A stretch of DNA of 64,000 nucleotides from Hyalangium sp. (GCF_045802625.1 NZ_JBJMQP010000096.1:37810-101809); one strand, 5' to 3'. Positions 15,201 to 40,242 are shown, counted from the first letter of the stretch. A program made the numbers and translations. Notes: a model not told the origin generated them from the letters alone.

Positions 15201-16141
15201 CGCTCGATGAACCGAGTGTTGCCGCCGGACTGGACGCGAGCGGTGGGAGCGCTGCGTATGGTGCCCTGCTGAGCTGGGCGAAGGAGTGCGTGACCCTTCC
15301 GCTGCAGCGGCAGTTCTCTCAGCCGCCCACGCAGATTCTCTGGGTGCCCACGGGAGTCTTAAGGATGCTGGCTCCCGCGGACGTGTGGCCTTCGTCACCC
15401 GTCACGTGCGCGGTGAGGCTCGATCTGGAGACTCGCGCGCATCCCGCGCGTCCCAGGCGGACGCTCGTGGCAGTGGCGGATCCCGGGCTTGGCTGCGACG
15501 AGGCCCAGGAAATTCCGGATGCCATCCCCGCAGGTGTACGGCTGGCCCGTCTCGCGGAACAGGTCGGCCCGGTGCGTGTACGGATGAGCCAAGGCCGGGC
15601 TTTCGGCGAGTCGCTGGAAGGCGAGTGTCCTGGGTTGGAGCGCGGTCCCGCCTCTCCTGACGATGTCTTGCGCGAGCTGCCGGAGGTGGATGTCGCCCTC
15701 TTCCTATGCCACGGCGAAGTGTCCAGCCCACACGAGGCCCGGCTGCTGCTGCTCGACGAGTCAGGGAAGATCGCCGCGTTGGACATGGAGCGGATGGCCC
15801 AGGATCCGCGGCGCCTGGCGGGGATGCTGGTCGTCCTGCTCTCCTGCCAGACCGGACGCGTGGGTGACTGGCTCCACCGCGCAGCGGGACTCTCCGGGGC
15901 GCTGCTTGCATGCGGAGCCAGGAGTGTGGTGGCTCCCCTGTGGCCTGTTCGGACCGGGCCTGCGGTGGCGGTGGGAGAGGCCGTCCTGAGCGCGCTCTCC
16001 ACCCACGCTGATCTCTCCGTCGCCCTTCACCAGCTGCGCGCACCGGAGCGTGGCTCGGTCCTGGGTGGTCCCATGGGAGCTGCTCAGCGCGAGTTCGAGC
16101 AGTCGTGGTCCCTCAAGGCATTCGTTCACTGGACGGCATGA
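9224..16141 (+). CDS. Giant (2305 aa) TPR-like repeat protein with a C-terminal CHAT (caspase-like) protease domain
   Basis: A single uninterrupted ORF. It has long alpha-helical Leu/Ala/Arg-rich repeat regions. The C-terminus carries CHAT signatures VALFLCHGEVSSPHEARLLLLDE (His) and LVVLLSCQTGRVGDW...VVAPLWPV (Cys), at roughly nt 15300..16100. Confidence 0.65.
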   Translation: MTDLLTQLDSASHAERLQLYERSQQRLTHEDVVQALSSKRPCRFWLVIRWEAGAPGTALPDPQAAMRRLREGRAGKADVVSLLLAPDALRDEAQDIFAVLSGMRAVAVSHRAPRLAGWLVRAAAIASIAFGRPEEGWAVLDTVGTEGYEPGLIRVARMYVDPLRADPELARSGWVRRAASIIWAQLEMPALRTLPVPFGLPMTEAGEIENPRPLIERLDQLGAVLISKALSNLVVAILKHARVEEETPFVEPAGVTTWKLLCDRVLDITRRVGGHRSATPAAIEMALSGESAPVLSRDLLVMVAARISELDLLSRWVACALVLRWIEGSEFEVPWWGIFAYAAVRTLYDLGRVEFFPVRLRLLDALIDKNLPAISRVDLLLWRANTRVMLAGSDAAQHELGLQDLREAEALSQRNGNVEEEVRAACARAHAEALGVHGAADQKNWLLEQAANRLTSLLARVPGERTALPLYEVLAEIESQRAEHGTASAGDRALRYARQAAVAGDSNPRHATSNKARLAELLLLYGKEEDRAEAIRLARQALQELPADAGEMHASMPHAVLGTALFKSGAVADAIGHLEQALSLQIRQAVAPARILTRISLGRAYLAQNQRADARHQLERAEEEARAVDDHAGLYDAVQLISGLDREEGNDDMADIRLQDAERIVAGTFRQPLLALERLRPRHYGAALSEELLALMRRYLEGKLPRSAEADEMLAQIVANHADEFPADLQGRFLMDDARVSGDPVIRAKLLDSKGHTEEALSLLRQVLAEGGDPRVQLNAAATLIVLLPEEAHEERLQACELVEDLIGDSEEYAAARNDLAEGLRLCARNDQGLLARARRHADMAAKQFQHDAKALEINTRVRANIRADQLARSAMQSTSAVIELAEWLERGLKLPAKELAARREHAAMILLHPGPLAHPQALEVAGRLLDRVPESEEARRLKQRLQWIQSKLQEQATDQVPPEGESPQAPSVQGPFDEAPAWALALLQGRGSKLDRAFSAEDHETIFQVLTARPDRADALLEWVLEQDALGDSEGQDLIANIAAMAPRGRMTPDLLQTVEEITTRKGSFPMLRLRVLLHSQSLNWGDGTPYARSADELIAVARTPEERVEARFLKGIERMNALQRHRRPDEKRQELAESARRYLREALDEARGLQLPEGRLFSLLVSAGNSFRIGRAPDLEQALALYREAEALGAPNKQGAAKLWKVQANALLARKAPGDAKRALILLEQSLEVRRGGYLRVETLVAAAEAEMAQLDRDEQVRLSRALSRIDEAVIHAEAPHRHDLVKAQIYYLGRLVHLSPHDEAAQRRLEALHSQFPELAKAIDRAKHGWTGPVPPDMVELISELALHPAITALVEAKRSLLPRRLSMGQEGAEAALDDDFPADLGEDSEQHQSVLSPQDLRAHVDQLVSAAGPEALPGAAVGRASVLAQLTEQGVVSAEEVRRLAEEAEQHVRRMPDSVARCYLLLEVARLWAPESHFNHPVRDFRRAAALAREVLEACPPGSALARDALHSLARATRYRKDGDTRTHRREAERLYEQAAREYESVGMKDVAARVRVHLSELRQELHPGGTESPLREGLSAAREALAATGSGARRVDAQATLAYFLTSLGADLQTPEGNAMLAEAKSLYEHLDWTQLVSGARASAENFQTICFAELARRAGRRGVAIEIWRKRLAQVDRASRPDEWGYTVHNLADMLLRAPTAAQLEEGLDLAEKALQVRTLEHNARHHWETCWLIGRTVVGLLEQWIDDRPWPFSFSPQTLWKRGLTALQGAGQAARRLDGGDRLRQVAVQLFGLAMSSSSREEYEQTAELAWKDLDEARPYMLLDEEAGAEEARWGADITAGLASELSEEGIVGVSDGRLAFLLSGEKAERVLKWMARTLGAAQRRLAGRTAQPDTVSRETWVEWLSVIQAGDARDIARVLDRIRQSENSFLRGEPDLTQTWNWLQTRPGSVAVAVLETPMGLLAAILEHSGRRTVHIAALEVEAPPLDEPSVAAGLDASGGSAAYGALLSWAKECVTLPLQRQFSQPPTQILWVPTGVLRMLAPADVWPSSPVTCAVRLDLETRAHPARPRRTLVAVADPGLGCDEAQEIPDAIPAGVRLARLAEQVGPVRVRMSQGRAFGESLEGECPGLERGPASPDDVLRELPEVDVALFLCHGEVSSPHEARLLLLDESGKIAALDMERMAQDPRRLAGMLVVLLSCQTGRVGDWLHRAAGLSGALLACGARSVVAPLWPVRTGPAVAVGEAVLSALSTHADLSVALHQLRAPERGSVLGGPMGAAQREFEQSWSLKAFVHWTA

Positions 16142-25173: not shown

Positions 25174-25296
25174 GTTTCCCTTCCTCGGGCGTAAGGCACA
25201 GATGGGATCACCCCCTGTGCTACCCTGGCGCAAGCCAGGTGCCTCACTGGCTCTGAAGGAGGGAGGGCTTGCGCAAGCAGCGCCCGCTCATTGCCC

Positions 25297-28200
25297 ATGT
25301 CAAATCCGGACAAAGACAATCAGCCCCTCGCTTCGACTCTGACCCTCACGCCAGGGAATCCTGCTTCCCCCGGGCCGAACCGTGAGGGTGAGAAAGGCGG
25401 CCAGGCCGTCGCCGGTGTGGAGCGTGTCCCCGCCTCGCCTGAAAGCCCGAGCTTCCCGGTCACCGACTGGGAGCGCTACGAGTTCCTGGAGGTGTTGGGC
25501 CACGGCGGGATGGGAGAGGTCTACAAGGCGCGTGATAGGCGCTTGGGGCGCATCGTTGCGCTCAAGTTCATCCGTGGAGCGGATCCGGATCTGGTCATGC
25601 GCTTTCTTCAGGAGGCTCGCGCGCAGTCCCGCATCGATCACCCGAATGTCTGCAAGGTGTACGAAGCAGGAGAGGTGGCCGGGAAAGCCTACATCGCCAT
25701 GCAACTGGTGGCAGGCCAGCAACTGGATCGGGCCGCCGCCAAGATGTCACTGCCCGAGAAGGTGGGGGTGATGAAGCAGGTGGCCGCAGCAGTGCATGAG
25801 GCGCACCGGCTGGGCGTCATCCACCGGGATCTCAAGCCCAGCAACATTATGGTGGAGCGAGGAGAGGATGGACGCTGCATCCCCGTGATCATGGATTTCG
25901 GGCTGGCCTACGAAGTCAGCCAGGGACATGGGCTGACAGTGACCGGAGCGTTGCTGGGGACGCCGTCGTACATGGCCCCAGAGCAAGCGCGGGGGGACAC
26001 GCGGAACATCGATCGTCGCACGGATGTGTATGGGCTTGGGGCGACATTCTATGAACTGCTGGTGGGAGTGGCTCCGTTCACTGGAGCCACGCTCATGGAC
26101 ACGCTGGCGAAGGTACTCGACGAGGAGCCACCCCCGCTGCGTGTGCGCGAGCCTCAACTCGCCAAGGACTTGCAGACCATCGTTCTCAAGTGTCTGAGCA
26201 AGGAACCGAACCAGCGTTATGCGTCCGCTCGGGAGCTGGCCGAGGATCTGGATCGCTATATCGACGGCGAGCCGATTCTGGGGCAGCGGCAAAGCTTGGT
26301 GTACAGATGGAAGAAGCAAGCGCAAAGGCACCGAGCACTCGTGGGTGTCTCGGGCGGGGCCTTGGTCATCATCCTGCTCCTCGCGGCGTTCGGGCTCCGC
26401 GCCTGGGTGGAGGGGAGACGCACACAGGAGCGAGCGCGGCTGGCCGAGCAGCTGGGGCAGCAGGTCAAGGAGATGGAGCTGTTCCTGCGGACCGCGTACG
26501 GCCTGCCACTGCACGACACCAGTCGGGAGCAGCAGTGGGTGCGAGAGCGGATGGCGCGGATCGCCTCCCAACAGCAGCAACTGGGCGACGAGGACGGAGG
26601 GCTGGCACACTATGCACTGGGGCGCGGCTACCTTGCATTGCATGAGCCCGACAAGGCACTCGAGGAATTGACGCGAGCGATGGACATGGGAGTGGACTCG
26701 CGGGAGTTGCACTACGCTAGGGGACGCGCGCTCGGCGAGTTGTATGAACGGGCCGAGCAGGCGCTACGTGCCCAGACGGCGGCCACCGAGATAAAGCAGC
26801 AGCGTGAGCTTGAGCAAAAGTACCTCGAACCCGCCATCCAGTCGCTCGAGCGCAGTCGAGGATTGGAACTGGAGTCATCCCATTATCTTGAAGGCCTCAT
26901 TGCCTTCTTGCGGCATGACTACAAGAACGCGGCACAGGCTGCGGAACAGGCCGCGGTCGAGGCTCCGTGGATGTATGAGGCTTTGACACTCGCAGGCGAT
27001 GTGGCCTTCAACCAACGGAGGACGCAAGTCGTTCGTCCTGGCCTCGATGGGGCGAGTACCGCCTTGCTCAAGGCAGTGGGCCTGTACGAGCAAGCGGCAG
27101 ATATTGCGCGGAGTGATCCACGCAACTACGAGGCACTTGCGGAAGTATGGCTTCTTCAGTCTCAGATAGACCGTAATCAGTCACGATCAGAATGGCCATC
27201 GTTGGTGCGAGCCCTCGCAGCGAACGACAAAGCTCTTCAGGCGTCGCCTCTGCGAGCATCAGCGTACAATGAACGAGCCCGCATCTTGAGGAGTTGGAAT
27301 CAGGAAGTGAACTCCCGGTCGAGCCTGATTCAGGCCGCGGCCATCTCCGCCGCTTCTCGTGCCGTGGAGTTAGATCCGGCAAGTGCGGAGGCCTACTACG
27401 TAGTGGCTTCTTTGTTGGAGGGGCGTGCCAGTCAATTAGCCGACGAAGGCAAGGATCCGGACGTTGTCTGGGATGAGGCGGTCACCTCGCTCAATCGGGC
27501 CATCGAACTACAGCCCAGCAATATGGGCACGATCGGCCAGTTCGCACGACTCTATTTGGCGCGAGGCGATTATTTACTGGAGCGAGGCCAAGACCCCAGT
27601 GATGCGTATGCGGAGGCTGAGCGTTTCTTCAATAGAGTGATTCGTGGCGACTCGTTGGTGTGGAATCTCGGCACTGTGGCCAATTTCCTGATGGATCTTC
27701 ACGCTGGCTTGGCTGAATACCGCCTGTCGATCGGACTCAATCCCGAGGATGAAGTCCAGAAAGTGCTCGAAGTGGGGCAGCGAGCCCCCGCCAGGGCTGT
27801 GAGGCGGGATAGAATGGCCCGTGCCGAGCTGACACGAGCCCAGTATCTCATCAACAATGGTGGTGACCCGCAGCCCTCATTCGAGCGGGCTCGGGGCTAC
27901 TTCGAGGACGAGGAGCGGATTCGTGAGGACGCGGCGCGCTCCCTCGGTCGTAAACCGGATTGTATCGGCTGCGAGCTCATGGGCGCGCGGCTGGATCTGG
28001 AGGAAGCCCTCTGGGTTCGGCAACGAGGGCAGGTGGCCTTACCGCTTCTCATGGACGCGCTCGCTAAAGCCCGACGCGCAGTGGAGCAGGGGCACAGCAG
28101 CATGAGCCACTTGGAACTGGCGCGGGTCTATTGGCGCCTCGCGGAGGCGCAGCCAGTGGGAGAGGCGCCGACGGCTATCACAGAAGGGTTTGCGCAGGTG

Positions 28201-28440
28201 GAACTGGTGCTTCAGCGAAATCCGTCTCTGGCGCACGCTTACGCCATCCGTGGAGGGCTTTTTCTCGTAAAGGCACGAGCCGCCCGCAAACCAGCGGAGC
28301 GCCTCGATGCGGTTCACCAAGCACAGGCTGCGATGGCACAGGCCTTCAATCTCAATCCGCTGTTGAAGCGGGAGTACGCTGCGGTCGCGCACGAAGTGGA
28401 GTCAATGCTCTTGCCGTCAGAGGCGCGGATTTCGCCATAG
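25297..28440 (+). CDS. Ser/Thr protein kinase with a TM segment and a long C-terminal TPR/Sel1-like repeat region
   Basis: Kinase motifs GHGGMGEVYKA, HRDLKPSNIMV, DFGLA and TPSYMAPE. The TM helix is ALVGVSGGALVIILLLAAFGL. Roughly 650 aa of helical repeats follow. The track lists a TTG at 25291; ATG 25297 (MSNPDKD) is the likelier start. Confidence 0.75.
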   Translation: MSNPDKDNQPLASTLTLTPGNPASPGPNREGEKGGQAVAGVERVPASPESPSFPVTDWERYEFLEVLGHGGMGEVYKARDRRLGRIVALKFIRGADPDLVMRFLQEARAQSRIDHPNVCKVYEAGEVAGKAYIAMQLVAGQQLDRAAAKMSLPEKVGVMKQVAAAVHEAHRLGVIHRDLKPSNIMVERGEDGRCIPVIMDFGLAYEVSQGHGLTVTGALLGTPSYMAPEQARGDTRNIDRRTDVYGLGATFYELLVGVAPFTGATLMDTLAKVLDEEPPPLRVREPQLAKDLQTIVLKCLSKEPNQRYASARELAEDLDRYIDGEPILGQRQSLVYRWKKQAQRHRALVGVSGGALVIILLLAAFGLRAWVEGRRTQERARLAEQLGQQVKEMELFLRTAYGLPLHDTSREQQWVRERMARIASQQQQLGDEDGGLAHYALGRGYLALHEPDKALEELTRAMDMGVDSRELHYARGRALGELYERAEQALRAQTAATEIKQQRELEQKYLEPAIQSLERSRGLELESSHYLEGLIAFLRHDYKNAAQAAEQAAVEAPWMYEALTLAGDVAFNQRRTQVVRPGLDGASTALLKAVGLYEQAADIARSDPRNYEALAEVWLLQSQIDRNQSRSEWPSLVRALAANDKALQASPLRASAYNERARILRSWNQEVNSRSSLIQAAAISAASRAVELDPASAEAYYVVASLLEGRASQLADEGKDPDVVWDEAVTSLNRAIELQPSNMGTIGQFARLYLARGDYLLERGQDPSDAYAEAERFFNRVIRGDSLVWNLGTVANFLMDLHAGLAEYRLSIGLNPEDEVQKVLEVGQRAPARAVRRDRMARAELTRAQYLINNGGDPQPSFERARGYFEDEERIREDAARSLGRKPDCIGCELMGARLDLEEALWVRQRGQVALPLLMDALAKARRAVEQGHSSMSHLELARVYWRLAEAQPVGEAPTAITEGFAQVELVLQRNPSLAHAYAIRGGLFLVKARAARKPAERLDAVHQAQAAMAQAFNLNPLLKREYAAVAHEVESMLLPSEARISP

Positions 28441-28462
28441 AGTGCTGTGTCGGCAGTGATCA

Positions 28463-29797
28463 TCAGTCCTGCCGGAGCTCCAACCGGGGCGCGTTCGCGT
28501 GATCCGGGGGCTTCTGCTTGTTGCCCAGGCGCCAGGCCACGAGTCCTCCTCCCGCCATGATCATCCCCACGGCGGCGAGCGCCCACAGCAGCCCGGTTCG
28601 CTGGTGCGGCTGGAAGAGGGCTCGTGCTGACAGGGTTGGCGCCTCATCCGAGGGCCGGCTCGGCTTCGCGGGCGGAGGCTGGACGAGCCGGAGCCTTGGC
28701 GGCGTCTCCACCTTCGTGATGGCAAGCCCCGGCCGAATCGGTACTGAGGAGCGCGGAGGAGGCGGCGGCGGCGGTGAGAAGCGCGGCGGCGGTGAGAAGC
28801 GCGGCGGCACGGCAGCGATGCGCGGCGGCGGAGGAGGCTCGGTGCGAGGTGAGTGGCTCGGTGGAGCCGGGGCCTCCGTGGGCGCGCTGTCGATCATCTT
28901 CGACACGAACTGCGCGATCCGGTGCACGCCCACCTTCTTCCCCGTGGAGAGGATGAAGTCCTCCAGATCCGACTGGAACGCCCGGCAGTCCGGGTAGCGC
29001 TGCTCGCGATCCTTGGCGAGCGCACGATCGAGGATCTTCGATACCGCCTTGGGCAGATCCGGCCGGCGCTCCACCGCGGGCACGGGTGGCTCGTAGAGGA
29101 TCGCCTGGGCCATGCTGGCTTCGGTGGTCGCGTTGAACGGCTTGCGGCCGGTGAGCAGCTCGTAGAAGACGATCCCCAGCGCGTACACGTCCACGCGCCG
29201 ATCCAACTCCTTGTTGCGGATCTGCTCGGGCGCCATGTACGAGAGCTTGCCCTTGATGACTCCGGTCAACGTGCGGTGGCTCTGGTTGGCCGCCTTGGCG
29301 ATGCCGAAGTCCACGATCTTCACCGCGCCCTGCCGGGACAGCAGGATGTTGTCGAGGCTCACGTCCCGGTGGATCAGCCCCAGGTGCTGTCCCGTGTCCG
29401 GATCCTGAAGCTCGTGAGCGAAGGCCAGCCCCTCGCAGGCCGTCGCGATCAGCCGGGAGCAGAGCACCGGGGACAGCGCCATCTCGAGCGCGTTCACCCG
29501 CTTCAAGAGCGCGCGCAGGTTGAGGCCGTTGATGTACTCCATGGCCAGGTAGTACGTGCCGTGGGCCTGCCCGAAGTCGAAGATCTGGACGATGTGAGGG
29601 TGCGTGAGCCGCGCGGCCAGCTTGGCCTCGGTGAAGAACATCTCCACGAAGGCCTCATCCCCCGCCAGGTGCGGCAGGATGCGCTTGACCACGACTTCTT
29701 TCTCGAAGTCCATGGGGCCCGCGACCTTGGCCAGCCAGACCTCGGCCATTCCCCCGATCGCGAGCTTGCGGATGAGCCGGTATTTGCCGATCTGCAT
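28463..29797 (-). CDS. Ser/Thr protein kinase with a Pro-rich tail and a C-terminal TM segment
   Basis: Kinase motifs [32 protein letters not shown] and [26 protein letters not shown] repeat. The TM helix is [20 protein letters not shown]. The likely start is the internal ATG (MQIGKYRL) near 29797; the track ORF extends to 29929. Confidence 0.7.
28755..28812. repeat. Perfect tandem duplication of about 18 bp (gcggcggtgagaagcgcg x2) inside the kinase gene 28463..29797
   Basis: Seen directly in the sequence. On the minus strand it encodes the repeated PPRFSP units in the Pro-rich tail. Confidence 0.5.
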
Positions 29798-29967
29798 CCC
29801 GGCAAGCTCGATCCGGGAGGCAAAGTCCGCGACCCCACCCGCGCGAGGATCCGCGCGCACTGTCCGTGCGAGCACAGGCCGACTGCCCGGGGGCTGACGG
29901 ATCCCTCGAAGGGCCGAGGGCAGTGCCAACCCTCAAGAAACGAGAGTCGCTTCGCCAGGCAGGGCGC

Positions 29968-31011
29968 TCAGCTCCGTAAGGGCAGCGTGGCGGGCAGCGC
30001 GCCGGAGAGCGCCCTCATGGCCGAGGCCAGCTCATCGATCGTGAGCGACATGTCCGAGGCGCCCATGCGCAGCGCCGCCTCGGGCATGTTCGGGACGACG
30101 CAGCTCTCGGGGTTCTGCACGAGCGTCAGGCCCCCCGCGCGACGGATGGCCTGCAGCCCCATGGCTCCGTCCGTGCCCATGCCCGTCAGCACCGCGCCCC
30201 CGGCCCGGTTTCCATGGGCGCGCGCCAGCGACGTCAACAGCGTGTCTCCCGCCGTCACGTGGCGGCCCTGGACCGACTCCACGAGCAGCTCACCCGTGAT
30301 GAGCACCTGCATCAGGTGCCCGTCCGGCGCCAGGTAGACGTGGCCCGGCTGGGGCCGGGTGCCCGTGCGTGCCATCTCCAACTGCAGCGGCGAGGCCGCC
30401 CCCAGCCACTGGCGCAGCCCCGAGGTGAAGCCCACCGACACGTGCTGGGCGATGAAGATCGGGTAGGGCAGGCTCGGAGGCAGCAGGGACAGCAACATGG
30501 CCAGCGCGGGCGGGCCTCCCGTGGCGGCCACCAGCCCGAAGCCGTTCACCCGCCCTCCGCGCAGCATCGGCGGCGGAGCCGGGTGGCCGAGCACCAGCTT
30601 GCGCGGCGCCAGGGGGATCTCCGCCATGGCCCGGATGGTGTGGATGAGCTGGTGGCCGAAGCTCGTGAGGCCGCCGTCCTTGCCCGGCGTCGGCTTGGGC
30701 ATCACCTCGAGCGCCCCCGCCTGCAGCGCCTTGAAGGACAGCTCCGCGTCCATGGCTCCCGAGATGACCAGGATGCGGCTGGGGGCCTCGCTCATGATGC
30801 GCTGGGTGGCGTCGATGCCGTCCATCCGCGGCATCCGCACATCCAGCGTGACGACGTCCGGGCGGAGCGACTGCACCATCTCCACCGCTTCCTTCCCATC
30901 GCTCGCGGTACCGACGACCCGGATATCCGGGGCGGAGGCGAGCAATCCAGTGAACATTCGCAGGATGGTAGGCGAGTCATCCGCAAGGAGGACCTGAATC
31001 GGCGGGTTCAT
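29968..31011 (-). CDS. cheB: CheB-like response regulator / methylesterase, paralog 1 (the catalytic Ser is replaced by Ala)
   Basis: N-terminal REC domain (VLLADDSPT..., phospho-acceptor in VVTLDVRMP) plus a CheB methylesterase domain. The nucleophile block reads GLVAATGG rather than ASTGG. His (AQHVS) and Asp (GMGTDGA) are retained. Confidence 0.7.
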   Translation of the reverse strand: MNPPIQVLLADDSPTILRMFTGLLASAPDIRVVGTASDGKEAVEMVQSLRPDVVTLDVRMPRMDGIDATQRIMSEAPSRILVISGAMDAELSFKALQAGALEVMPKPTPGKDGGLTSFGHQLIHTIRAMAEIPLAPRKLVLGHPAPPPMLRGGRVNGFGLVAATGGPPALAMLLSLLPPSLPYPIFIAQHVSVGFTSGLRQWLGAASPLQLEMARTGTRPQPGHVYLAPDGHLMQVLITGELLVESVQGRHVTAGDTLLTSLARAHGNRAGGAVLTGMGTDGAMGLQAIRRAGGLTLVQNPESCVVPNMPEAALRMGASDMSLTIDELASAMRALSGALPATLPLRS

Positions 31012-31174
31012 GGGCACCTCGAAGGCCGTCGGGCGCACGGCAAGCAGGACACAGAGCCTACTTCATGCATTCTATTCGCAGAATGGCCCCATCCTACGCC
31101 TTGGGTCGTATGGGCTGTCGCGAGGAGCTCGCGTAGACTGTCGCGTCCGAGACGAACCAGGCGCGCGGAGGCGC

Positions 31175-32227
31175 TCAGTTCCGAACGGGCAAGGCCGGGG
31201 GGACGGTGCCGGTGAGGGCGCGCATGGCCGAGGCCAGCGCCTCCAGCGACAGGAGCGTGTCGGTGGAGCCGTTGCGCATCGCCGCCTCGGGCATGCCGGG
31301 GACGACACAGCTCTCGGGAGTCTGCGCGAAGGTGATGCCTCCGGCGCGCTTGATGGCCAGCAGCCCCGAGGCTCCATCCGAGCCCATGCCCGTGAGCACC
31401 GCGCCTCCCGCCCGGTTGCCGTAGGCCAGCGCCATCGAGGACAGCAGCGTGTCTCCGAGCGCGGCCTTGGCGACCGGGATGGGCTCCACGAGCAGCTCTC
31501 CCGTCAGCATCACCTGGAGCTGGTGCCCGTCCGGCGGCAGGTAGACGTAGCCGGGCTGGGGCCGGGTGCCCGTCTGCGCCACCTCGAGCTGCAGCGTGGA
31601 GGCGGCGCCCAGCCACTGGCACAGGCCCGCGGTGAAGCCGTCCGAGACGTGCTGGGCGATGAAGATGGGGTAGGGCAGCTTGGGCGGCAGCAGCGACAGC
31701 AGCAGGCAGAGCGCGGGCGGGCCACCGGTGGAGGCCACCAGCCCGAAGCCATTCACCCGGGCCTGCTGCGGCTGGGGGGGCGTGGGCACCGGACCCGGCA
31801 CGGGAGGAGGTGACGGCCGGCGCTCGGCCAGCGGCAGCTCGGCCATGGTCCGGATGATGTGGATCAGCTTCACGCCGAAGTTGGCCAGGCCCTCCAGGCC
31901 GGGCCGCGGCTTGGGCATGACCTCGAGCGCTCCGGCCTGCAGCGCCTTGAAGGACATCTCCGCGTCCACCGCGCCCGAGATGACCAGGATGCGGCTGGGG
32001 GCCTCGCTCATGATGCGCGAGCTGGCCTCGATCCCGTCCATGCGCGGCATGCGCACATCCAGGGTGATGACATCCGGATGGAGCGTGCGTGCCAGCTCCA
32101 AGGCCTCTTCTCCATCCTTGGCCGTGCCAATCACCTGAATGTCCGGCGCCGAGGACAGCAGCGCCGAGTACATCTTCAGCATGGTTGGCGAGTCGTCTGC
32201 GATGAGGACTCGGATGGTGGAGCTCAT
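31175..32227 (-). CDS. cheB: CheB-like response regulator / methylesterase, paralog 2 (canonical Ser/His/Asp triad)
   Basis: REC domain (VLIADDSPT..., VITLDVRMP) and methylesterase blocks GLVASTGG, IFIAQHVS and LTGMGSDGA. The start is ATG 32227 (MSSTIRV). The track ORF extends to 32479. Confidence 0.75.
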   Translation of the reverse strand: MSSTIRVLIADDSPTMLKMYSALLSSAPDIQVIGTAKDGEEALELARTLHPDVITLDVRMPRMDGIEASSRIMSEAPSRILVISGAVDAEMSFKALQAGALEVMPKPRPGLEGLANFGVKLIHIIRTMAELPLAERRPSPPPVPGPVPTPPQPQQARVNGFGLVASTGGPPALCLLLSLLPPKLPYPIFIAQHVSDGFTAGLCQWLGAASTLQLEVAQTGTRPQPGYVYLPPDGHQLQVMLTGELLVEPIPVAKAALGDTLLSSMALAYGNRAGGAVLTGMGSDGASGLLAIKRAGGITFAQTPESCVVPGMPEAAMRNGSTDTLLSLEALASAMRALTGTVPPALPVRN

Positions 32228-32306
32228 GTGCGCCTCAGAGAGGGGGGCGAGGGTGCTCGGGGAACCGTGCCATACATACCTGACGATTCGCCCGCCCAGA
32301 GCAGGA

Positions 32307-33344
32307 TCAAATGCCCGGAGGAGAGCCCGGCGGGGGCATGCCTTCGAGTGAACGGAGGATGTTGGCCAGGGCCTCGGGGGACACGCTGTGCTCGGTGGCC
32401 TTGTTGCGCAGCGCCGCCTCCGGCATTCCGGCCACCAGGCACGTCTCGGGGTCCTGCGCGAAGGTGAGCCCGCCGGCACGCTTGATGGCCATCAGCCCCA
32501 CTGCGCCTTCCTCGCCCATGCCGCTAAGTACCGCGCCGGCGGCGTGGGCGCCATAGGCTCGTGACAGCGAGGCCAGCAGCAGATCCCCCGAGGGGAAGGT
32601 GCTGCCCGAGGCCTTCTCGATGACGAGCTCTCCCTGCATGCCCACCCGCAGGTGGTGGCCATCCGGGGCCAGGTAGACGGTGCCGGCCCGGGGCTGCTCC
32701 GAGGCGCGGGCGATCTCCACCGGCAGCGGCGACAGCGAGGTCAGCCAGCGGTGCAGGCCCACGGTGAAGCCCGGGGTGATGTGCTGGGCGACGAAGAGCG
32801 GGTAGGGCAGGCTGCGCGGCAGCAGCCACAGCAGCGAGGCCAGCGCCGTGGGGCCGCCAATGGAAGAGGTGAGCGCGAAGCCCGCCACGCGCGCGTTCGG
32901 CGGCAGCACGGGGGCGGTGCCGCGGCCCTCGGAGCGCTGGGTGACGAGCTTCACCTCGGCCAGCAGCCGGATGGCCGACAGCAGCCGGACGCCGAAGCGC
33001 GCCACGTCCTCGGGCGAGCCCTGCGGCTTGGCGATGACCTCCAGCGCTCCGGCCTGCAGCGCGCGGAAGGACAGGTCCGTGTCCGGCGCGCCCGACACCA
33101 TGAGGATGCGGCAGGGCGTCTCCGCCATGATGCGCTCGGTGGCGCCCAGGCCGTCCATGCCCGGCATCTGCACATCCAGGGTGATGACATCCGGCTTCAG
33201 GGAGCGCGCCAGCGCGACGGCCTCCTCACCATCCCGAGCGGTCCCCACCACCGTCACATCCGGCTGGGCAGACAGCAGCCGTGTGAGCACCTGTAGCATC
33301 GTGGGTGAATCATCAGTGAGGAGGACTTGGATGGGCTTGCTCAT
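32307..33344 (-). CDS. cheB: CheB-like response regulator / methylesterase, paralog 3 (Asp to Glu in the triad motif)
   Basis: REC domain (VLLTDDSPT..., VITLDVQMP) and methylesterase blocks ALTSSIGG (Ser kept), LFVAQHIT and LSGMGEEGA (Glu in place of Asp). Confidence 0.7.
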   Translation of the reverse strand: MSKPIQVLLTDDSPTMLQVLTRLLSAQPDVTVVGTARDGEEAVALARSLKPDVITLDVQMPGMDGLGATERIMAETPCRILMVSGAPDTDLSFRALQAGALEVIAKPQGSPEDVARFGVRLLSAIRLLAEVKLVTQRSEGRGTAPVLPPNARVAGFALTSSIGGPTALASLLWLLPRSLPYPLFVAQHITPGFTVGLHRWLTSLSPLPVEIARASEQPRAGTVYLAPDGHHLRVGMQGELVIEKASGSTFPSGDLLLASLSRAYGAHAAGAVLSGMGEEGAVGLMAIKRAGGLTFAQDPETCLVAGMPEAALRNKATEHSVSPEALANILRSLEGMPPPGSPPGI

Positions 33345-33450
33345 GAGGTTCTCCGAACTCCAGGTGCGTTTCTACCCCAGGGGTGGGCCGCTCGCCTACG
33401 ACTCACGGTGGGCACTGTATCAAGCCGGATGAGCCTGCTTCGCGCTTCTT

Positions 33451-35688
33451 TCAGCCCGCCTTGCGCTTCTTTTCCCGCTTGGGCTTGGACTCAGGGCCTT
33501 TGGGAGGAGGGCTGTCCCGGGGTTCCTCGATTACGGGGGGAAGCGCGGGCCGGCTCGCGGGCAGGGGCGCACCTTCCGTGGGGGAGGCCTCCACCGGCTG
33601 TGACTCCGCCGGCAGCGCGGGCAGGCGGATGACGAAGGAGCACCCCTCGCCGGGCCTGCTGTGGACGGAGATGCTCCCGCCATGATTCTTGACGATGCGC
33701 TGGCAGATGGCCAGCCCCAGCCCCGTGCCCTTCTGTTTGGTGGTGAAGAAGGGCACGAAGATGTGCTGTTGCTGGTCCAAGGGGATGCCAGGCCCCGTGT
33801 CGGAGACGAGGACCTCGACGAACTCGTTCATGTTGCCGCGGAAGTCCCCGAAGCGGTCCGGCTTGACGGTGCCCACGGTGATGCGGCCGGCGGTGTCGCC
33901 GATGGCCTGCACCGCGTTCTGCACCAGGTTGATGAGCACCTGCTTGAGCTGCTCGGCGTCCGCGTCCACGCGCGGCAGCGTGAGATCCAGCTGCACCGCC
34001 AGCTCGATCTGCTTGGGCACGTCGTTCTGAACGAGGCGCATGGTGCGCGTCACCACCTCGTTGAGATCCGTGGGCCCGAAGCTCTGCTTGAGCGGGCGCG
34101 CGTAGTCCAGGAACGCCGTCACCACGCCGTTGAGCCGGTTCACCTCCTCGACGATGACGCCCAGGAACTCGCCGTCCTCGCCGGGGAGCCGCTTGGGATC
34201 CAGGCACTGCGCGGCGCCCTTGATGGCGCCCAGCGGGTTGCGGATCTCGTGCGCCAGGCCCGCCGCCATCTCACCCAGCGCCGCCAGGCGATCGCGCTCG
34301 CGGATCTTCTCGTACAGCTTCGAGTTCTCCAGCACCGTGGCCACGCGCTCGGCCACCGAGAGGATGAGGGCGATCTCGTCCGAGGCGTAGGCCTCCGGCA
34401 CGCGCTCGTCCCACAGGTTCAGGAAGCCGATCACCCGATCGTTGCCCACCAGCGGCACGCTGATGCCGGCCTTCATCTGCAGCAGCGAGGCGCGCGTGTC
34501 CTGCAGGCGTTTGATCTCGTCGCGGAAGCGCTTGCCCTCGGTGGAGTGCACCCGCAGCGCGGTGAGCCGGTTCTCCACGTTCTCCAGCAGCACGGCCTTC
34601 TGGCCCGAGGCGGCCGCCAGGAGCAACCCGCGCGCCGCGGCCGTGTCCAGGAAGCCCTCGGGAGGTGGGCCGCGAGAGTCCAGCAGCCGGTAGCCTGGAC
34701 GATCCTCGGCCAGCATGTACACGGAGGCGTGGGTGACGCGGCCCGTCTCGTGGAGTGCGTCCAGCAGCATCCGCGTCACCTCGGAGATGTCGATGACGTT
34801 GGCCATGCGCGCCCGCAGGGCCCCGAGCGCCCGGAGCAGCTCGAAGCGCTCGCGGAAGAAGATGGCCACCACCTGCTCCTCCACCTTCACCCTCAGCGGC
34901 TCCACGAGGATGATGATGACGAAGGCGGCCACCACCGTGTTGAAGACGAACAGGCCCGTGTTCGTCTTCACCCACACGGTGAGCACGGTGAACACGGCGG
35001 CCAGGATGAAGGCCAGCACCGTCTGCGAGGCGATCTTCCCCAGCAGCTCGTGCAGGTCCATCAGCCGCAGCCGCAGCAGCGTCTGCGCCAGGAAGAACAG
35101 GTAGAGCGTGGAGAAGATGGGCCCCAGCGGAGGCAGGGGAATGTCATAGCGCCGGCCCACCAGATCCAACGCCGTCAGCAGGATGGAGGCCCCGGCCCCG
35201 ATGGCCAGGTACATGAGCCGCAACCGTTCAATGCGCGACTCCTGGGTGCGCACCCGGTTCAGCAGCAGGCTCACCGAGGTGAGCAGGGTGCCTAGCACCC
35301 ACACCCCCGTGGCCATCCGCGCCCAGCTCGTCTGCGCCAGCGGGGTGACGGCCACCACCACACCAAACACGCTCGACAGCAGGCCCAGCCGTCGGCCGAG
35401 CATGTGGGTGCCTTGGCTAACACCCAGGAACTCCAGGAAGAAGGAGACGGCCGCGCCGGGGACGAAGGAGGCCACCAGGAGGGTGGCGCCCACGGCGATT
35501 CTGGACACCCAGCCGGGCTCGGGGAAGATGCCGGCGAGGAAGAGCGCCAGGTAGTACCCCGCCACCGTGAGGGCGAAGACGGAATACAGCGTCACCACCC
35601 GCGGCCTGCCTGGTCGCAGGAGCATCGACAGCCCGAGCGCCAGGCCGACGAGTGACGCGAGGAGCGCGCTCTGGGTTCGGATGTCCAT
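33451..35688 (-). CDS. Sensor histidine kinase: multi-TM N-terminus, GAF domain, HisKA, HATPase_c
   Basis: About 7 hydrophobic helices in the first roughly 270 aa. A GAF-like middle region. H-box LGEMAAGLAHEIRNPLGAI. ATPase blocks LINLVQNAVQA, DTGPGIP and GTGLGLAICQRIV. The C-terminal tail is basic and Pro-rich. Confidence 0.8.
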   Translation of the reverse strand: MDIRTQSALLASLVGLALGLSMLLRPGRPRVVTLYSVFALTVAGYYLALFLAGIFPEPGWVSRIAVGATLLVASFVPGAAVSFFLEFLGVSQGTHMLGRRLGLLSSVFGVVVAVTPLAQTSWARMATGVWVLGTLLTSVSLLLNRVRTQESRIERLRLMYLAIGAGASILLTALDLVGRRYDIPLPPLGPIFSTLYLFFLAQTLLRLRLMDLHELLGKIASQTVLAFILAAVFTVLTVWVKTNTGLFVFNTVVAAFVIIILVEPLRVKVEEQVVAIFFRERFELLRALGALRARMANVIDISEVTRMLLDALHETGRVTHASVYMLAEDRPGYRLLDSRGPPPEGFLDTAAARGLLLAAASGQKAVLLENVENRLTALRVHSTEGKRFRDEIKRLQDTRASLLQMKAGISVPLVGNDRVIGFLNLWDERVPEAYASDEIALILSVAERVATVLENSKLYEKIRERDRLAALGEMAAGLAHEIRNPLGAIKGAAQCLDPKRLPGEDGEFLGVIVEEVNRLNGVVTAFLDYARPLKQSFGPTDLNEVVTRTMRLVQNDVPKQIELAVQLDLTLPRVDADAEQLKQVLINLVQNAVQAIGDTAGRITVGTVKPDRFGDFRGNMNEFVEVLVSDTGPGIPLDQQQHIFVPFFTTKQKGTGLGLAICQRIVKNHGGSISVHSRPGEGCSFVIRLPALPAESQPVEASPTEGAPLPASRPALPPVIEEPRDSPPPKGPESKPKREKKRKAG

Positions 35689-35796
35689 GTTCGAGCGAAC
35701 AGTCTAACCTGTGTCCACGGCCGGAAATTTTTTGACTGTCTCCCGTTGTCCTCGGGCGTGCCCGAGCGCATCCAAAAGGGCTGCAAGCCCTCCCCC

Positions 35797-38205
35797 ATGA
35801 AATCCGCCCTTTCGCTGATTGCCGTCGTCTCCTTTGCCTCGCTGGCCTCCGCGCAGCCCGTGGCCACCGAGGCCACGAGCGCGCCCCAACCCCGCACCGA
35901 CGGCGCTCCCACCGAGGCGCAGCTCACTCCGCCTCCGGAGGCGGAGAAGGCTCCGCTGCCGCCGGAGTATGTGGAGATCTTCAACCCGGCCTTCCCGATG
36001 CCCGAGGTGGCGCCTCCCAAGAAGGCGGAGGTGGAGGTCCCGAAGGGCAAGGCGTACGGGCTGCCCGAGCTGACGCCGTACTTCGCCGAGGGCAAGAAGA
36101 AGGAGGCCAAGGCGGCCTTCGATCGCGGCCTGTACCTGAAGGCCCGCGAGCTGCTGGCCAACGAGGGAGACTCGCTGCCGGTGCGCTACCTGCGCGCCCT
36201 GAGCGCCGTGCGCGCTGGGGATGATGCCCGCGCGGCCGTGGAGATGGCCTCGCTGGCCGAGGACTACCCGGCGCTGAGGGATCGCTGCCTCACGCATGCG
36301 GGCATGGCGCTGGAGGATCTGGGCAAGTTCGACGCGGCGGCGAAGATGTTCTCGGCGGTGTCCGAGGACTCGAAGCTGTACGTGGATGCGCGCCTGGCGC
36401 TCGGGCGCGTGCTGCGCAAGAAGAAGGACTATGACGGAGCCATGGCCGCGCTCGCGCCGCTGGCGAACCGGCCCGCGCCGTTGTTTGGCCGCAACGTGGG
36501 CGCCGAGGCGCTCATGGCCGTCGCCGACATCGCCGCGGAGAAGAAGGACAAGGTGCACGAGCGCGAGGCGCTGTGGCGCCTGTGGTCGCTCTATCCGCTC
36601 TCGCCGCTGACGAAGCAGGCCGATCGGCGCCTCAAGGGCATCAAGCCTCCGGTGGAGGCCCTGGTGGCGCGCGCCGAGCAGCTGATCGAGCTGCACCGCA
36701 ACAAGCAGGGGCTCACCGTGCTGGAGCCGCTGCTGTCCACGCTGAAGCTGCCGGATCCGCTCGCGTGCCGCGCGCACTTCGCCTACGGCAAGGGCCAGCG
36801 AAAGGAGCGCAACCACACCAAGGCCATCTCCGTGCTCACGCCGGTGGTGGACAAGTGCCAGGACGCGGAGCTGCTGCCGCGCGCCATGTACGTGCTGGGC
36901 TCGTCGGCCTCCATCGTGGACATGAAGCGCGGGGCGCAGGTGTACGAGCGGCTCGCGAAGGAGTTCCCGGGCCATTCGTTCGCGGATGACGCGCTCTTCT
37001 ACGCGGCGGACCTGTACGTGAAGACGGACCAGCCGGCTCAGGCCCTGGCCCGGCTCGAGGAGCTGGAGAAGAACTACTCGCAGGGCGACTTCGTGGGCGA
37101 GGCGCTCTTCAAGGCGTTCTGGATCGCTCGTAGCGCGAAGGTGCCGGATGGCGGGCTGTCCATCCTCGACAAGATCGAGAAGCGCTTCGCCGACGCGGAC
37201 GAGTCGTATGATCTGGAGCGGGCGCTGTACTGGCGCGCTCGGACGCTGCAGGAGCGCGGCGACACGCAGGGCGCGGTGGCGCTCTTCGAGAAGCTCGCGG
37301 TGGAGCACCCGGCCACCTACTACGGGCTGATGGCGCGCGCCCAGCTAGGTGACGTGGACAAGGATCGGCTGGCGAAGATCACCCCGCAGCTGGTCTTCAC
37401 CGCCGAGTCCGCCAGCCCGTGGCCCATGCACACCGGGCCCCTCATGGAGAAGGATCCGCACTTCCTGGCGGGCGTGGAGCTGCTGCGCCTGGGCTTCCTG
37501 GACGCGGTGTCCGCCGAGCTGCTGGCGGTCAATCGCAATGGGCTGGCGGCCGAGCCCTCGCGGCTGCTGGTGCACCTGCTGGCCATGGCCGGGGACGAGC
37601 GGGGCGCGCATGCGGTGGCGCGCGTGTCGCTGCGCAGGGACTTGAGCGGGCGCATCACCCCGCAGACGCGGCCGGTGTGGGAGATCGCCTATCCGAACGC
37701 GTACCGGAACCTGATCGAGAAGCACACCAAGGAGGCCGGGGTGGAGCCGGATCTCCTGCAGGCGCTGATGCGCGAGGAGAGCGCGCTGGACCCGAAGGCC
37801 CTGTCCTGGGCCGGAGCGCTGGGGCTCACGCAGCTGATGCCGTTCACGGCGAAGGCGGTGGCCCAGCAGCTCAAGATCAAGCGCTTCCGCGTCGAGTCCC
37901 TGCTGGAGCCGGAGATGAACATCCGCCTGGGCGCGCACTACCTGGGGCAGCTCGTCAAGCAGTTCGACGGGAACGCGCCCTTCGCGGTGGGCAGCTACAA
38001 CGCGGGCTCCGGAGCCATCAACAAGTGGCGCGCCGAGCGCAAGGGCATGCCGCTGGATGCGTGGGTGGAGGAAGTGCCGATCGCCGAGACCCGCGGCTAC
38101 ATCAAGCGCGTGCTGCGCTCGTATAACACGTACCAGCTGCTCTACGGCCACACCGCCAAGGTCCCCGCGGTGAAGTCCGCCGGCCTGTTGCCGGCGGCTC
38201 ACTAG
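35797..38205 (+). CDS. Soluble lytic murein transglycosylase (Slt70-like: TPR/superhelical N-terminus plus C-terminal SLT domain)
   Basis: Signal peptide MKSALSLIAVVSFASLASA. Long helical repeats. SLT catalytic region LMREESALDP...GALGLTQLMPFTA...VGSYNAGSGAINKW. The start is ATG 35797 inside track ORF 35746. Confidence 0.75.
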   Translation: MKSALSLIAVVSFASLASAQPVATEATSAPQPRTDGAPTEAQLTPPPEAEKAPLPPEYVEIFNPAFPMPEVAPPKKAEVEVPKGKAYGLPELTPYFAEGKKKEAKAAFDRGLYLKARELLANEGDSLPVRYLRALSAVRAGDDARAAVEMASLAEDYPALRDRCLTHAGMALEDLGKFDAAAKMFSAVSEDSKLYVDARLALGRVLRKKKDYDGAMAALAPLANRPAPLFGRNVGAEALMAVADIAAEKKDKVHEREALWRLWSLYPLSPLTKQADRRLKGIKPPVEALVARAEQLIELHRNKQGLTVLEPLLSTLKLPDPLACRAHFAYGKGQRKERNHTKAISVLTPVVDKCQDAELLPRAMYVLGSSASIVDMKRGAQVYERLAKEFPGHSFADDALFYAADLYVKTDQPAQALARLEELEKNYSQGDFVGEALFKAFWIARSAKVPDGGLSILDKIEKRFADADESYDLERALYWRARTLQERGDTQGAVALFEKLAVEHPATYYGLMARAQLGDVDKDRLAKITPQLVFTAESASPWPMHTGPLMEKDPHFLAGVELLRLGFLDAVSAELLAVNRNGLAAEPSRLLVHLLAMAGDERGAHAVARVSLRRDLSGRITPQTRPVWEIAYPNAYRNLIEKHTKEAGVEPDLLQALMREESALDPKALSWAGALGLTQLMPFTAKAVAQQLKIKRFRVESLLEPEMNIRLGAHYLGQLVKQFDGNAPFAVGSYNAGSGAINKWRAERKGMPLDAWVEEVPIAETRGYIKRVLRSYNTYQLLYGHTAKVPAVKSAGLLPAAH

Positions 38206-38221: not shown

Positions 38222-39648
<1,427 letters not shown>

Positions 39649-39652
<4 letters not shown>

Positions 39653-40242
39653 TCGACAGCGCCGTCCTGGTCCTCAATCGGAACTACCAACCCGTCCACG
39701 TCACCTCGGTCAAGCGGGCCTTCTCGCTGTTGTACCAGGGCGTGGCCAAGGCCATTGACGCCCAGTACCGGCTCTACGAGTTCGAGGACTGGGCCGCCCT
39801 GAGCGCCACGCACGACTGCATCACCACGGTGAACCGCTCCATCCGCGTGCCTCGGGTGCTGGTGCTCTCCGCGTACGAGTACCTCCCCAAGGGCCGGGTA
39901 CGCTTCTCACGCCTCAACATCTACGCGCGCGATGCCGACACCTGCCAGTACTGCGGGCGCACCTTGCCGCGCTCGGAGTTGAACCTGGACCACGTGCTGC
40001 CCCGGTGCGACGGCGGCAAGACGACCTGGGAGAACGTCGTCTGCTCGTGCGTGCCCTGCAACCTCAAGAAGGGCGGGCGCACCCCGGAGCAGGCCGGCAT
40101 GAAGCTCCTGCGTAACCCTTTCCGTCCCCGGTGGACGCCGCTGTTCCGTGGCGCCATCCGGCGCGTCACCTACCGGGAGTGGCTGCCGTTCCTCCGAGTG
40201 GAGGACGCCTCGTACTGGAACGTCGAGCTGCTGGACGAGTAG
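39649..40242 (+). CDS. HNH endonuclease family protein
   Basis: ATG overlaps the selA TGA (ATGA). HNH motif CQYCGR...LNLDHVLPRCDGGKTTWENVVCSCVPCNLKK. 197 aa. Confidence 0.7.

Follow-up and report, generated by a model that had tools for sequence, protein, structure and literature searches.

Among response regulators with an enzyme output, CheB is the textbook case, and its Ser-His-Asp catalytic triad is treated as invariant. A locus of Hyalangium sp. raises the question of what such a protein might do when it is encoded away from the chemotaxis genes and its catalytic residues have changed. Three genes for CheB-like proteins, here named c1, c2, and c3 (paralogs 1, 2, and 3 of an earlier sequence-only reading), lie there in tandem within a stretch of 64 kb (NZ_JBJMQP010000096.1:37810-101809), which was analyzed as a whole and is referred to as the window. 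The trio is situated about 30 kb from either end of the window, the G+C content of which is ~68%. We found that the three genes belong to a small natural family: one copy has a triad remodeled to Ser-His-Glu, the others have a triad that is repeatedly disabled by a Ser to Ala change, and the receiver and the fold remain under selection.

Organization of the locus

The sequence-only reading had predicted three consecutive genes on the minus strand, each encoding a receiver (REC) domain and a CheB methylesterase domain. Pfam searches confirmed this architecture in all three open reading frames (ORFs), with E-values of 5e-49, 1.3e-47, and 8.5e-48 for CheB_methylest and ~1e-22 for Response_reg. 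Two gene starts had to be corrected: c1 starts with the ATG at 31011 and c2 with the ATG at 32227, and the longer ORFs extended to GTG codons are wrong. From this start, the 347 amino acids of c1 are 100% identical to a public protein (P0001), which is annotated as "chemotaxis protein CheB [Hyalangium sp.]". On the minus strand, the three genes are preceded by a histidine kinase gene and followed by a Ser/Thr kinase gene, and the successive gaps in the order HK, c3, c2, c1, Ser/Thr kinase are 106, 79, 163, and 38 bp:

33451-35688, minus strand: sensor histidine kinase (HK), 745 aa, with a multi-transmembrane N-terminus and GAF, HisKA, and HATPase_c domains (Pfam)
32307-33344, minus strand: c3, 345 aa, REC and CheB-type domain (Pfam), the kinase-proximal copy
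31175-32227, minus strand: c2, 350 aa, REC and CheB-type domain (Pfam)
29968-31011, minus strand: c1, 347 aa, REC and CheB-type domain (Pfam)
28463-29929, minus strand: Ser/Thr protein kinase (STK1), Pfam Pkinase, 38 bp downstream of c1

The trio genes are already public and annotated as CheB. When scored with the NCBIfam CheB subfamily models, c1, c2, and c3 reach 258-271 bits, which is below both curated cutoffs (293 bits for NF001965 and 342 bits for NF009206). Chance is no issue here, as the domain matches are far beyond random expectation and eight or more genomes share the arrangement.

Catalytic and receiver residues

We aligned the proteins to CheB structures and homologues; all residue numbers refer to Salmonella CheB, with the triad Ser164-His190-Asp286 and the receiver residues Asp10, Asp11, Asp56, and Lys107. 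In phmmer searches against the PDB, residues 14-343 of c1 aligned to Salmonella CheB (1A2O, E 3e-49), and c1 also aligned to CheB of P. atrosepticum (6YMZ, E 1.9e-50). In the alignment to 1A2O, AATGG of c1 falls on ASTGG, which places Ala at Ser164, while QH(V) falls on His190 and GMGTDGA on Asp286. A MAFFT alignment with 120 homologues (124 sequences) gave the following residue states:

c1: nucleophile block VAATGG, histidine block QHV, acid block MGTDGA
c2: nucleophile block VASTGG, histidine block QHV, acid block MGSDGA
c3: nucleophile block TSSIGG, histidine block QHI, acid block MGEEGA

At the level of the DNA, codon 164 is GCC in c1 versus TCC in c2 and c3. The catalytic divergence read from the sequence was thus upheld by the alignments, in which not all three proteins keep Ser, His, and Asp. 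c1 has Ala at the nucleophile position, and c3 keeps the Ser and has Glu286 in place of Asp, to which the alignment adds Ile at Thr165. The description of c2 as canonical holds for the Ser/His/Asp triad but not elsewhere, since c2 has lost Pro258-Ser259 in the same way as c1.

The residue states were then counted in the c3 (n = 22), c1 (n = 33), and c2 (n = 35) clades and compared to 102 outgroup CheBs, mostly myxobacterial, at positions with an outgroup conservation of 93% or more. All 102 outgroup CheBs keep Ser164, Thr165, and Asp286; Pro258 is conserved in 100% and Ser259 in 96% of them. In the c3 clade, Ser164 and His190 are kept, whereas Glu286 and Ile165 are found in 22/22 sequences. 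The clade is also fixed (22/22) for a change at Thr281 (to Ser) and at Pro169, and it retains Pro258-Ser259. The opposite pattern is seen in c1 and c2, in which Thr165 and Asp286 are kept, Pro258-Ser259 is gone from every member (replaced by Ala-Leu in c2 of the window), and Arg201 is changed to Gln. Position 164 is Ala in 28 of the 33 c1 sequences and Ser in the other five (5/33), compared to Ser in 26/35 and Ala in 9/35 of the c2 sequences. Gly313 is variable in the c1 clade (Ser or Asn; Asn in c1 of the window), and one c2-like protein (P0051) is changed at all three triad positions.

The receiver residues, in contrast to the triad, are retained throughout. Asp10, Asp11, Asp56, and Lys107 are present in all c3 (22) and all c1 (33) sequences, and in the c2 clade Asp56 and Lys107 are found in 35/35 and Asp10/Asp11 in 33/35, the other two being truncated at the N-terminus. 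Overall, c1 and c3 depart from the CheB triad, while domain architecture, fold, and receiver site, as well as the triad of c2, are those of a CheB.

The residue at position 164 differs between species. The window and the syntenic loci L002 and L003 combine Ala164 in c1 with Ser164 in c2, and c2 of L007 also has Ser164; the c1-clade protein P0004 reads AATGG. Ala164 is found in c1 and c2 alike in L004-L006 (AATGG in c2) and in H. rubrum, as judged from the proteins P0025 and P0031. Fitch parsimony on the neighbor-joining (NJ) tree requires at least six Ser/Ala changes in c1 and c2 and none in c3, each of them a single TCC/GCC step. Conversion between c1 and c2 over the whole gene was rejected, as orthologues group by paralog in the NJ tree.

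Selection and predicted structure

We estimated dN/dS (ratio of nonsynonymous to synonymous substitution rates) between the window genes and their relatives by the Nei-Gojobori method. The values are approximate and, if anything, overestimates, because the strong codon bias (G+C content at third codon positions, GC3, ~0.9) depresses dS:

c3: whole gene 0.08-0.20, REC 0.007-0.054, CheB domain 0.07-0.27
c2: whole gene 0.16-0.40, REC 0.04-0.29, CheB domain 0.11-0.48
c1: whole gene 0.20-0.30, REC 0.10-0.29, CheB domain 0.23-0.35
HK: whole gene 0.19-0.34

Nonsynonymous change in c1 and c2 runs at about twice the c3 rate. No frameshifts or stops were found in the trio genes of L002-L007 and L018. 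All three paralogs, with their intact REC sites, are thus under purifying selection, and selection maintains the CheB domain even where it lacks the Ser.

The AlphaFold model of c3 (pLDDT 91.3) resembles CheB 6YMZ/1A2O with template modeling (TM) scores of 0.74-0.77, and that of c1 (pLDDT 88.5) resembles 1A2O/6YMZ with TM scores of 0.81-0.84. The catalytic domains of both models superpose on 1CHD and 3SFT with TMt 0.82-0.88 and root-mean-square deviations of 2.0-2.2 Å. In Salmonella CheB, the S164A variant is enzymatically inactive, while the activated protein binds the Tar receptor with an unchanged equilibrium constant (Li, Xu and Hazelbauer 2021, PMC8609364). Because c1 carries Ala164, keeps a CheB-like fold, and shows purifying selection, and because S164A inactivates Salmonella CheB, c1 is likely a pseudo-esterase. 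The earlier suggestion to this effect gains support from Ala164 in 28/33 sequences, the dN/dS of 0.20-0.30, the intact ORFs, and the S164A precedent (PMC8609364).

Conservation and origin of the trio

The window has the gene order HK, c3, c2, c1, with a lytic transglycosylase gene (SLT) divergent from HK. In a scan with one genome per species, we found the same order in seven genomes, L001-L007 (Hyalangium/"Myxococcaceae"), and the H. minutum type strain (L018) shares it. At least eight Hyalangium-type genomes thus carry the trio. The corresponding locus of two Stigmatella species (L012, L022) consists of ParA, HNH, (SelA), and the divergent SLT and HK genes, followed by one CheB-like gene. 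This single copy is of the c3 type, with Ser/His/Glu and FPSGD. Among named strains, Stigmatella aurantiaca DW4/3-1 has the single c3 copy, whereas all three genes, with the Ser retained, are found in H. minutum DSM 14724. A further c3-type gene, 74% identical, lies in L015 between genes for Mut7-C and IleRS, with no kinase nearby.

A phylogeny of the paralogs agrees with their description as tandem paralogs: in the NJ tree, c1, c2, and c3 form one clade with divergence at the catalytic positions, and c3 is sister to c1 plus c2. The nearest outgroup protein, P0065, is a CheB encoded within a che cluster of H. versicolor (L017). This position, together with the branching of c3, indicates that the ancestor of the trio was a che-cluster CheB, which gained independence and later underwent two duplications in Hyalangium. 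c3 would be the ancestral copy and is, by these comparisons, the most conserved.

The closest relative is L001 (CAVSWU010000003.1), with 93% identity. Its tblastn matches are split in HK, c1, and the ABC-F gene (6528-8648, 11212-12253, 13755-15733), which fits indel errors of the assembly and not real pseudogenes.

Chemotaxis genes in the window and elsewhere

We confirmed the prediction that the 64 kb lack chemotaxis core genes. Among the other high-GC3 ORFs of the window, Pfam scans revealed no CheA, CheW, CheR, or methyl-accepting chemotaxis protein (MCP); these ORFs encode transporters, ATP-grasp enzymes, protein kinases, SelA, ParA, a vault-protein homologue, a sigma factor, and MoxR/transglutaminase proteins, among others. 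Searching the window by tblastn with CheY, CheW, CheR, CheA, and MCP from a che cluster of H. versicolor yielded nothing but matches to REC domains and one weak match (E 4.5e-4). Likewise, che core genes were not found in the 10-kb flanks of the trio or c3 loci of the relatives.

Che clusters do occur elsewhere in the genus. H. versicolor, which harbors the trio locus L003, has two che clusters at other sites (L016, L017), and L016 comprises CheY, REC-CheW, CheR, CheW, CheA-REC, CheB, and MCP. With MCP, CheR, and CheA encoded in complete che clusters of this species, chemoreceptors are available in trans, and they remain the simplest candidate substrates of the CheB-like proteins. In M. xanthus, every REC-CheB is located in a che operon (PMC3945109 Table 3), which makes the orphan tandem arrangement unusual.

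The neighboring kinases

The sequence-only reading had also placed the trio between a membrane histidine kinase upstream and a Ser/Thr kinase downstream. Both genes are present, but the Ser/Thr kinase is not conserved and HK is an orphan elsewhere. HK orthologues (67-79% identical) occur in Myxococcus, Corallococcus, Pyxidicoccus, Archangium, Cystobacter, Melittangium, Stigmatella, and others. The SLT-HK pair is kept in M. fulvus, C. fuscus, M. boletus, and A. lipolyticum, where no gene for a response regulator or a CheB-like protein follows HK. The region downstream of HK is variable and contains transposases. The best NCBIfam matches of HK are of the AtoS/ZraS type, all below cutoff, and HK could be equated with no named M. 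xanthus kinase. The divergent SLT-HK pair itself is common to Myxococcaceae and Archangiaceae (loci L012, L018-L023).

The partner specificity of two-component kinases is set by the DHp region. The DHp helix pair of HK is 93-97% identical across genera with or without CheB-like genes, which suggests that its specificity did not shift on arrival of the CheB-like proteins. By its distribution, HK is an ancient core orphan kinase that predates the CheB-like genes and is a candidate phosphodonor. Because the adjacency of HK and c3 is conserved in Stigmatella and Hyalangium, it stays a candidate, and we judge the chances for and against it as roughly balanced. The alpha1 "specificity" helices of the receivers are conserved within each clade and distinct between them (MLQVLTRLLS in c3, MLKMYAALLS in c2, ILRMFTGLLA in c1), from which we infer that the paralogs are probably not equivalent substrates of one donor.

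Only the window, L001, and L003 have STK1 immediately after c1; L002, L004-L007, and Stigmatella gave no match to it. The H. minutum locus has a Pkinase gene ~0.9 kb downstream of the trio, which does not adjoin a CheB-like gene. We rejected the Ser/Thr kinases as parts of the module, as most relatives lack STK1 or have it displaced and a second Ser/Thr kinase gene, STK-TPR, is unique to the window. STK-TPR (25291-28440, plus strand) encodes a Ser/Thr kinase of 1049 aa that contains TPR repeats, and it lies in a stretch with a GC content of 0.61 versus ~0.68. It was probably inserted recently between the ABC-F gene and STK1, since it is absent from all syntenic relatives.

Conserved elements upstream of c3 and c1

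Cross-species alignment of the intergenic gaps revealed two conserved, promoter-like elements:

33369-33399, minus strand: c3 element in the 106-bp gap between HK and c3, with GTAGGC (33399-33394), 19 nt, and TAGAAA (33374-33369)
31056-31097, minus strand: c1 element in the 163-bp gap between c2 and c1, with GTAGGA (31097-31092), 17 nt, TAGAAT (31074-31069), and a second GTAGGC (31061-31056)

The c3 element has the consensus GTCGTAGGCG-N18/19-(GGGG)TAGAA. The alignment shows it to be conserved in the window, in L002-L007 and L018, and in Stigmatella L012/L022, and L001 has a pattern match at the same place. The element also precedes the c3-type gene of L015, which has no HK neighbor. For the c1 element, the consensus is GTAGG(C/A)-N17/18-TA(G/C)AAT; its blocks are conserved in the alignment of the c2-c1 gap of eight genomes, and pattern matches lie upstream of c1 in L002-L007. 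No conserved promoter-like element was found ahead of c2 in the alignment of the 79-bp c3-c2 gap, and a generic scan of 28300-35900 for sigma-70 promoters and terminators returned nothing. With conserved elements upstream of each, c3 (probably together with c2) and c1 seem to have promoters of their own.

The elements are not sigma-70-like. The c3 element accompanies c3-type genes even into an unrelated genomic context, and it could define a regulon.

Possible functions and alternative explanations

We tentatively favor, at slightly below an even chance, the explanation that the trio consists of che-independent, lineage-specific regulators derived from CheB, with c3 as an active esterase/deamidase that acts in trans and c1 and c2 as decoys or sinks. 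According to this model, one c3-type gene would have split from a che-cluster CheB and settled, with its own promoter, downstream of the conserved orphan HK in the Stigmatella/Hyalangium lineage. Two duplications of c3 in Hyalangium would have given the present c3, c2, and c1. Judged by its remodeled, complete site (Ser164-His190-Glu286 with Ile165), c3 is most likely a phosphorylation-activated glutamate methylesterase/glutamine deamidase. Such activity is plausible because the acid in serine triads is almost universally Asp or Glu (PMC9825947). By analogy to CheB, which is gated by phosphorylation of Asp56 (PMC8609364), c3 would be controlled through the same residue, and it probably acts on chemoreceptors encoded elsewhere.

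c1 and c2 would combine a competent receiver with a folded, selected CheB domain that has lost conserved residues of the active-site region, repeatedly including the nucleophile Ser. c1 is predicted to be unable to hydrolyze a substrate, as is c2 where it carries Ala164, and possibly every c2 in view of the loss of Pro258-Ser259. Both proteins most likely serve as phospho-gated decoys that occupy shared substrate sites without hydrolysis, and/or as phosphate sinks that tune c3. The idea of a decoy builds on S164A CheB, which is dead yet binds Tar with an unchanged constant (PMC8609364). The phosphodonor would be the adjacent HK or a CheA. A more specific form of the model appears unlikely to us: c1 and in some species c2 would be phospho-gated pseudo-methylesterases that open on phosphorylation, bind methylated or amidated receptor sites without hydrolysis, and so shield these sites from c3, and the set may be driven by a sensor kinase other than CheA.

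Several points weigh against the favored model. H. minutum has Ser164 in both c1 and c2, so catalysis by these copies may still matter in some species. The flanks of codon 164 are nearly identical between c1 and c2, and short-tract gene conversion could for this reason explain part of the Ser/Ala pattern. The dN/dS values are approximate owing to the strong codon bias that depresses dS. A receptor as substrate is a guess, given that neither CheR nor MCP is encoded nearby. The weight given to Pro258-Ser259 and Thr165 derives from their conservation. To our knowledge, a CheB with a Ser-His-Glu triad has never been assayed, and c3 could itself be impaired, since all 102 outgroup CheBs have Asp286.

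The sequence-only reading had proposed that the trio forms the output of a non-chemotaxis phosphorelay, a claim based on gene adjacency. In its strict form, the adjacent GAF-containing HK would be the dedicated phosphodonor of all three proteins in a non-chemotaxis two-component output on non-MCP substrates. The shared strand and the short gaps of 106, 79, and 163 bp speak for such a unit, as do the adjacency of HK and c3 kept in two Stigmatella species and at least eight Hyalangium genomes, the lack of che genes within 30 kb on either side, and the extreme conservation of the c3 receiver. Scores of ~260 bits, under the NCBIfam CheB cutoffs of 293 and 342, are likewise in line with it. However, in four other genera (Myxococcus, Cystobacter, Melittangium, and Archangium) HK is kept as an orphan and its locus lacks a CheB-like gene, and its DHp helices are 93-97% identical regardless of CheB-like genes. 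The c3-type gene of L015 has the same upstream element but no HK neighbor, the spot downstream of HK is variable and carries transposases, and the REC alpha1 helices of the three paralogs differ. The proposed phosphorelay was not borne out by these comparisons, and we regard a dedicated HK as doubtful. A variant in which the CheB-like proteins demethylate or deamidate the signaling helix of HK itself could draw on the adjacency of the genes and on the analogy to B. cereus, in which the CheR-like RsbM is described to methylate the hybrid kinase RsbK (PMC4574943). Here, no CheR-like gene is present in the window, an inspection by eye, which is not a formal test, found no EE/QE/EQ pair between GAF and DHp, and HK is unchanged in genera lacking CheB-like genes; this variant is very improbable.

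A more conservative explanation is that the trio are ordinary, redundant CheBs of distant che clusters, phosphorylated by CheA, and that their substitutions are tolerated drift. This would accord with the descent from a che-cluster CheB, the presence of several che clusters and MCPs in the genus, the intact triad of c2, Ser in both c1 and c2 of H. minutum, and the public annotation. Drift does not readily account for changes at sites that are invariant in the outgroup, namely D286E and T165I in c3, P258 in c1 and c2, and S164A in c1, to which the 96% conserved S259 can be added. Moreover, S164A abolishes activity (PMC8609364), and an orphan tandem is unusual when the M. xanthus REC-CheBs all lie in che operons (PMC3945109). 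We thus consider redundancy quite unlikely. Alternatively, c1 and c2 could be decaying duplicates on their way to pseudogenes and have no function of their own, in line with the roughly twofold dN of c1 and c2 over c3, the repeated loss of the nucleophile, and the loss of all three triad residues in P0051. Against decay stand the lack of frameshifts and stops in L002-L007 and L018, dN/dS of 0.16-0.40 for the whole genes with values below 0.5 for either domain, and the REC catalytic residues in all c1 and c2 sequences that span these positions. The conserved element upstream of c1 and the confident model of c1 also argue against it, which leaves decay with a very small probability.

Relation to known systems

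The trio shares architecture, fold, and REC phospho-acceptor residues with CheB of Salmonella/E. coli (1A2O) and P. atrosepticum (6YMZ), and c2 shares the triad too. It differs from these CheBs in that it is not encoded with CheA, CheW, CheR, and MCP, falls under the NCBIfam cutoffs, and carries residue changes in c1, c2, and c3. The closest relatives outside the family are cluster-encoded myxobacterial CheBs (M. xanthus CheB3/5/6/7/8 and the H. versicolor proteins of L016 and L017), with 44-53% identity. Unlike the trio, these are encoded within che operons, adjacent to CheA and MCP, and keep Ser164, Thr165, and Asp286. FrzG and CheBa (MXAN_0714) of M. xanthus are, like the trio, CheB-domain proteins of atypical organization (PMC3945109 Table 3). 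Both lack a REC domain and FrzG belongs to the frz operon, whereas the trio keeps REC and is a tandem triplicate.

The natural c1 carries the same substitution as engineered S164A CheB (PMC8609364). The latter is a laboratory mutant of an enteric protein; c1 is naturally selected and has further changes at P258, S259, and G313. Methylation of the chemotaxis type on a histidine kinase that is not an MCP is described for RsbM-RsbK of Bacillus cereus (PMC4574943). As RsbM is a methyltransferase and not an esterase, and the trio locus has no CheR-like gene, this is an analogy only. Our literature searches, made in a limited library, retrieved no description of a natural CheB that lacks the Ser or has a Ser-His-Glu triad, of an orphan CheB linked to a kinase, or of the trio.

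Should the copies without the Ser serve as phospho-gated decoys or sinks, they would represent a new way to tune receptor adaptation. If the orphan HK feeds the trio, a classical two-component sensor would be directly linked to chemoreceptor modification, and drive by any kinase other than CheA would wire a two-component signal into the adaptation state of the chemosensory array. The example also illustrates that the automatic label "chemotaxis protein CheB" hides inactive or altered members. S. aurantiaca DW4/3-1 and H. minutum DSM 14724 would be natural starting points for experiments.

Other features of the window

The window contains several further genes of note. An 802-aa bacterial homologue of the Major Vault Protein (MVP) of eukaryotes is encoded at 45948-48356 on the plus strand, with Pfam matches to MVP_shoulder (1.4e-45), Vault, Vault_2, Vault_3, and Vault_4. 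Hyalangium is mentioned in a preprint on bacterial MVP homologues (bioRxiv 10.1101/872010). A giant ORF of 2305 aa (9224-16141, plus strand) combines a C-terminal CHAT (caspase-like) domain with TPR and is mostly without Pfam match. At 3157-5988 on the plus strand, a protein of 943 aa has an MFS transporter as its C-terminal half, while its N-terminal half matches only sCache_3_2 and, by tblastn, an MCP region, both weakly. This protein may combine a sensor with a transporter. Finally, selenocysteine synthase SelA (38222-39652, plus strand; TIGR00474, 568 bits) is followed by an HNH endonuclease ORF (39469-40242, plus strand) that overlaps it as delimited here, and this pair is kept in the relatives.

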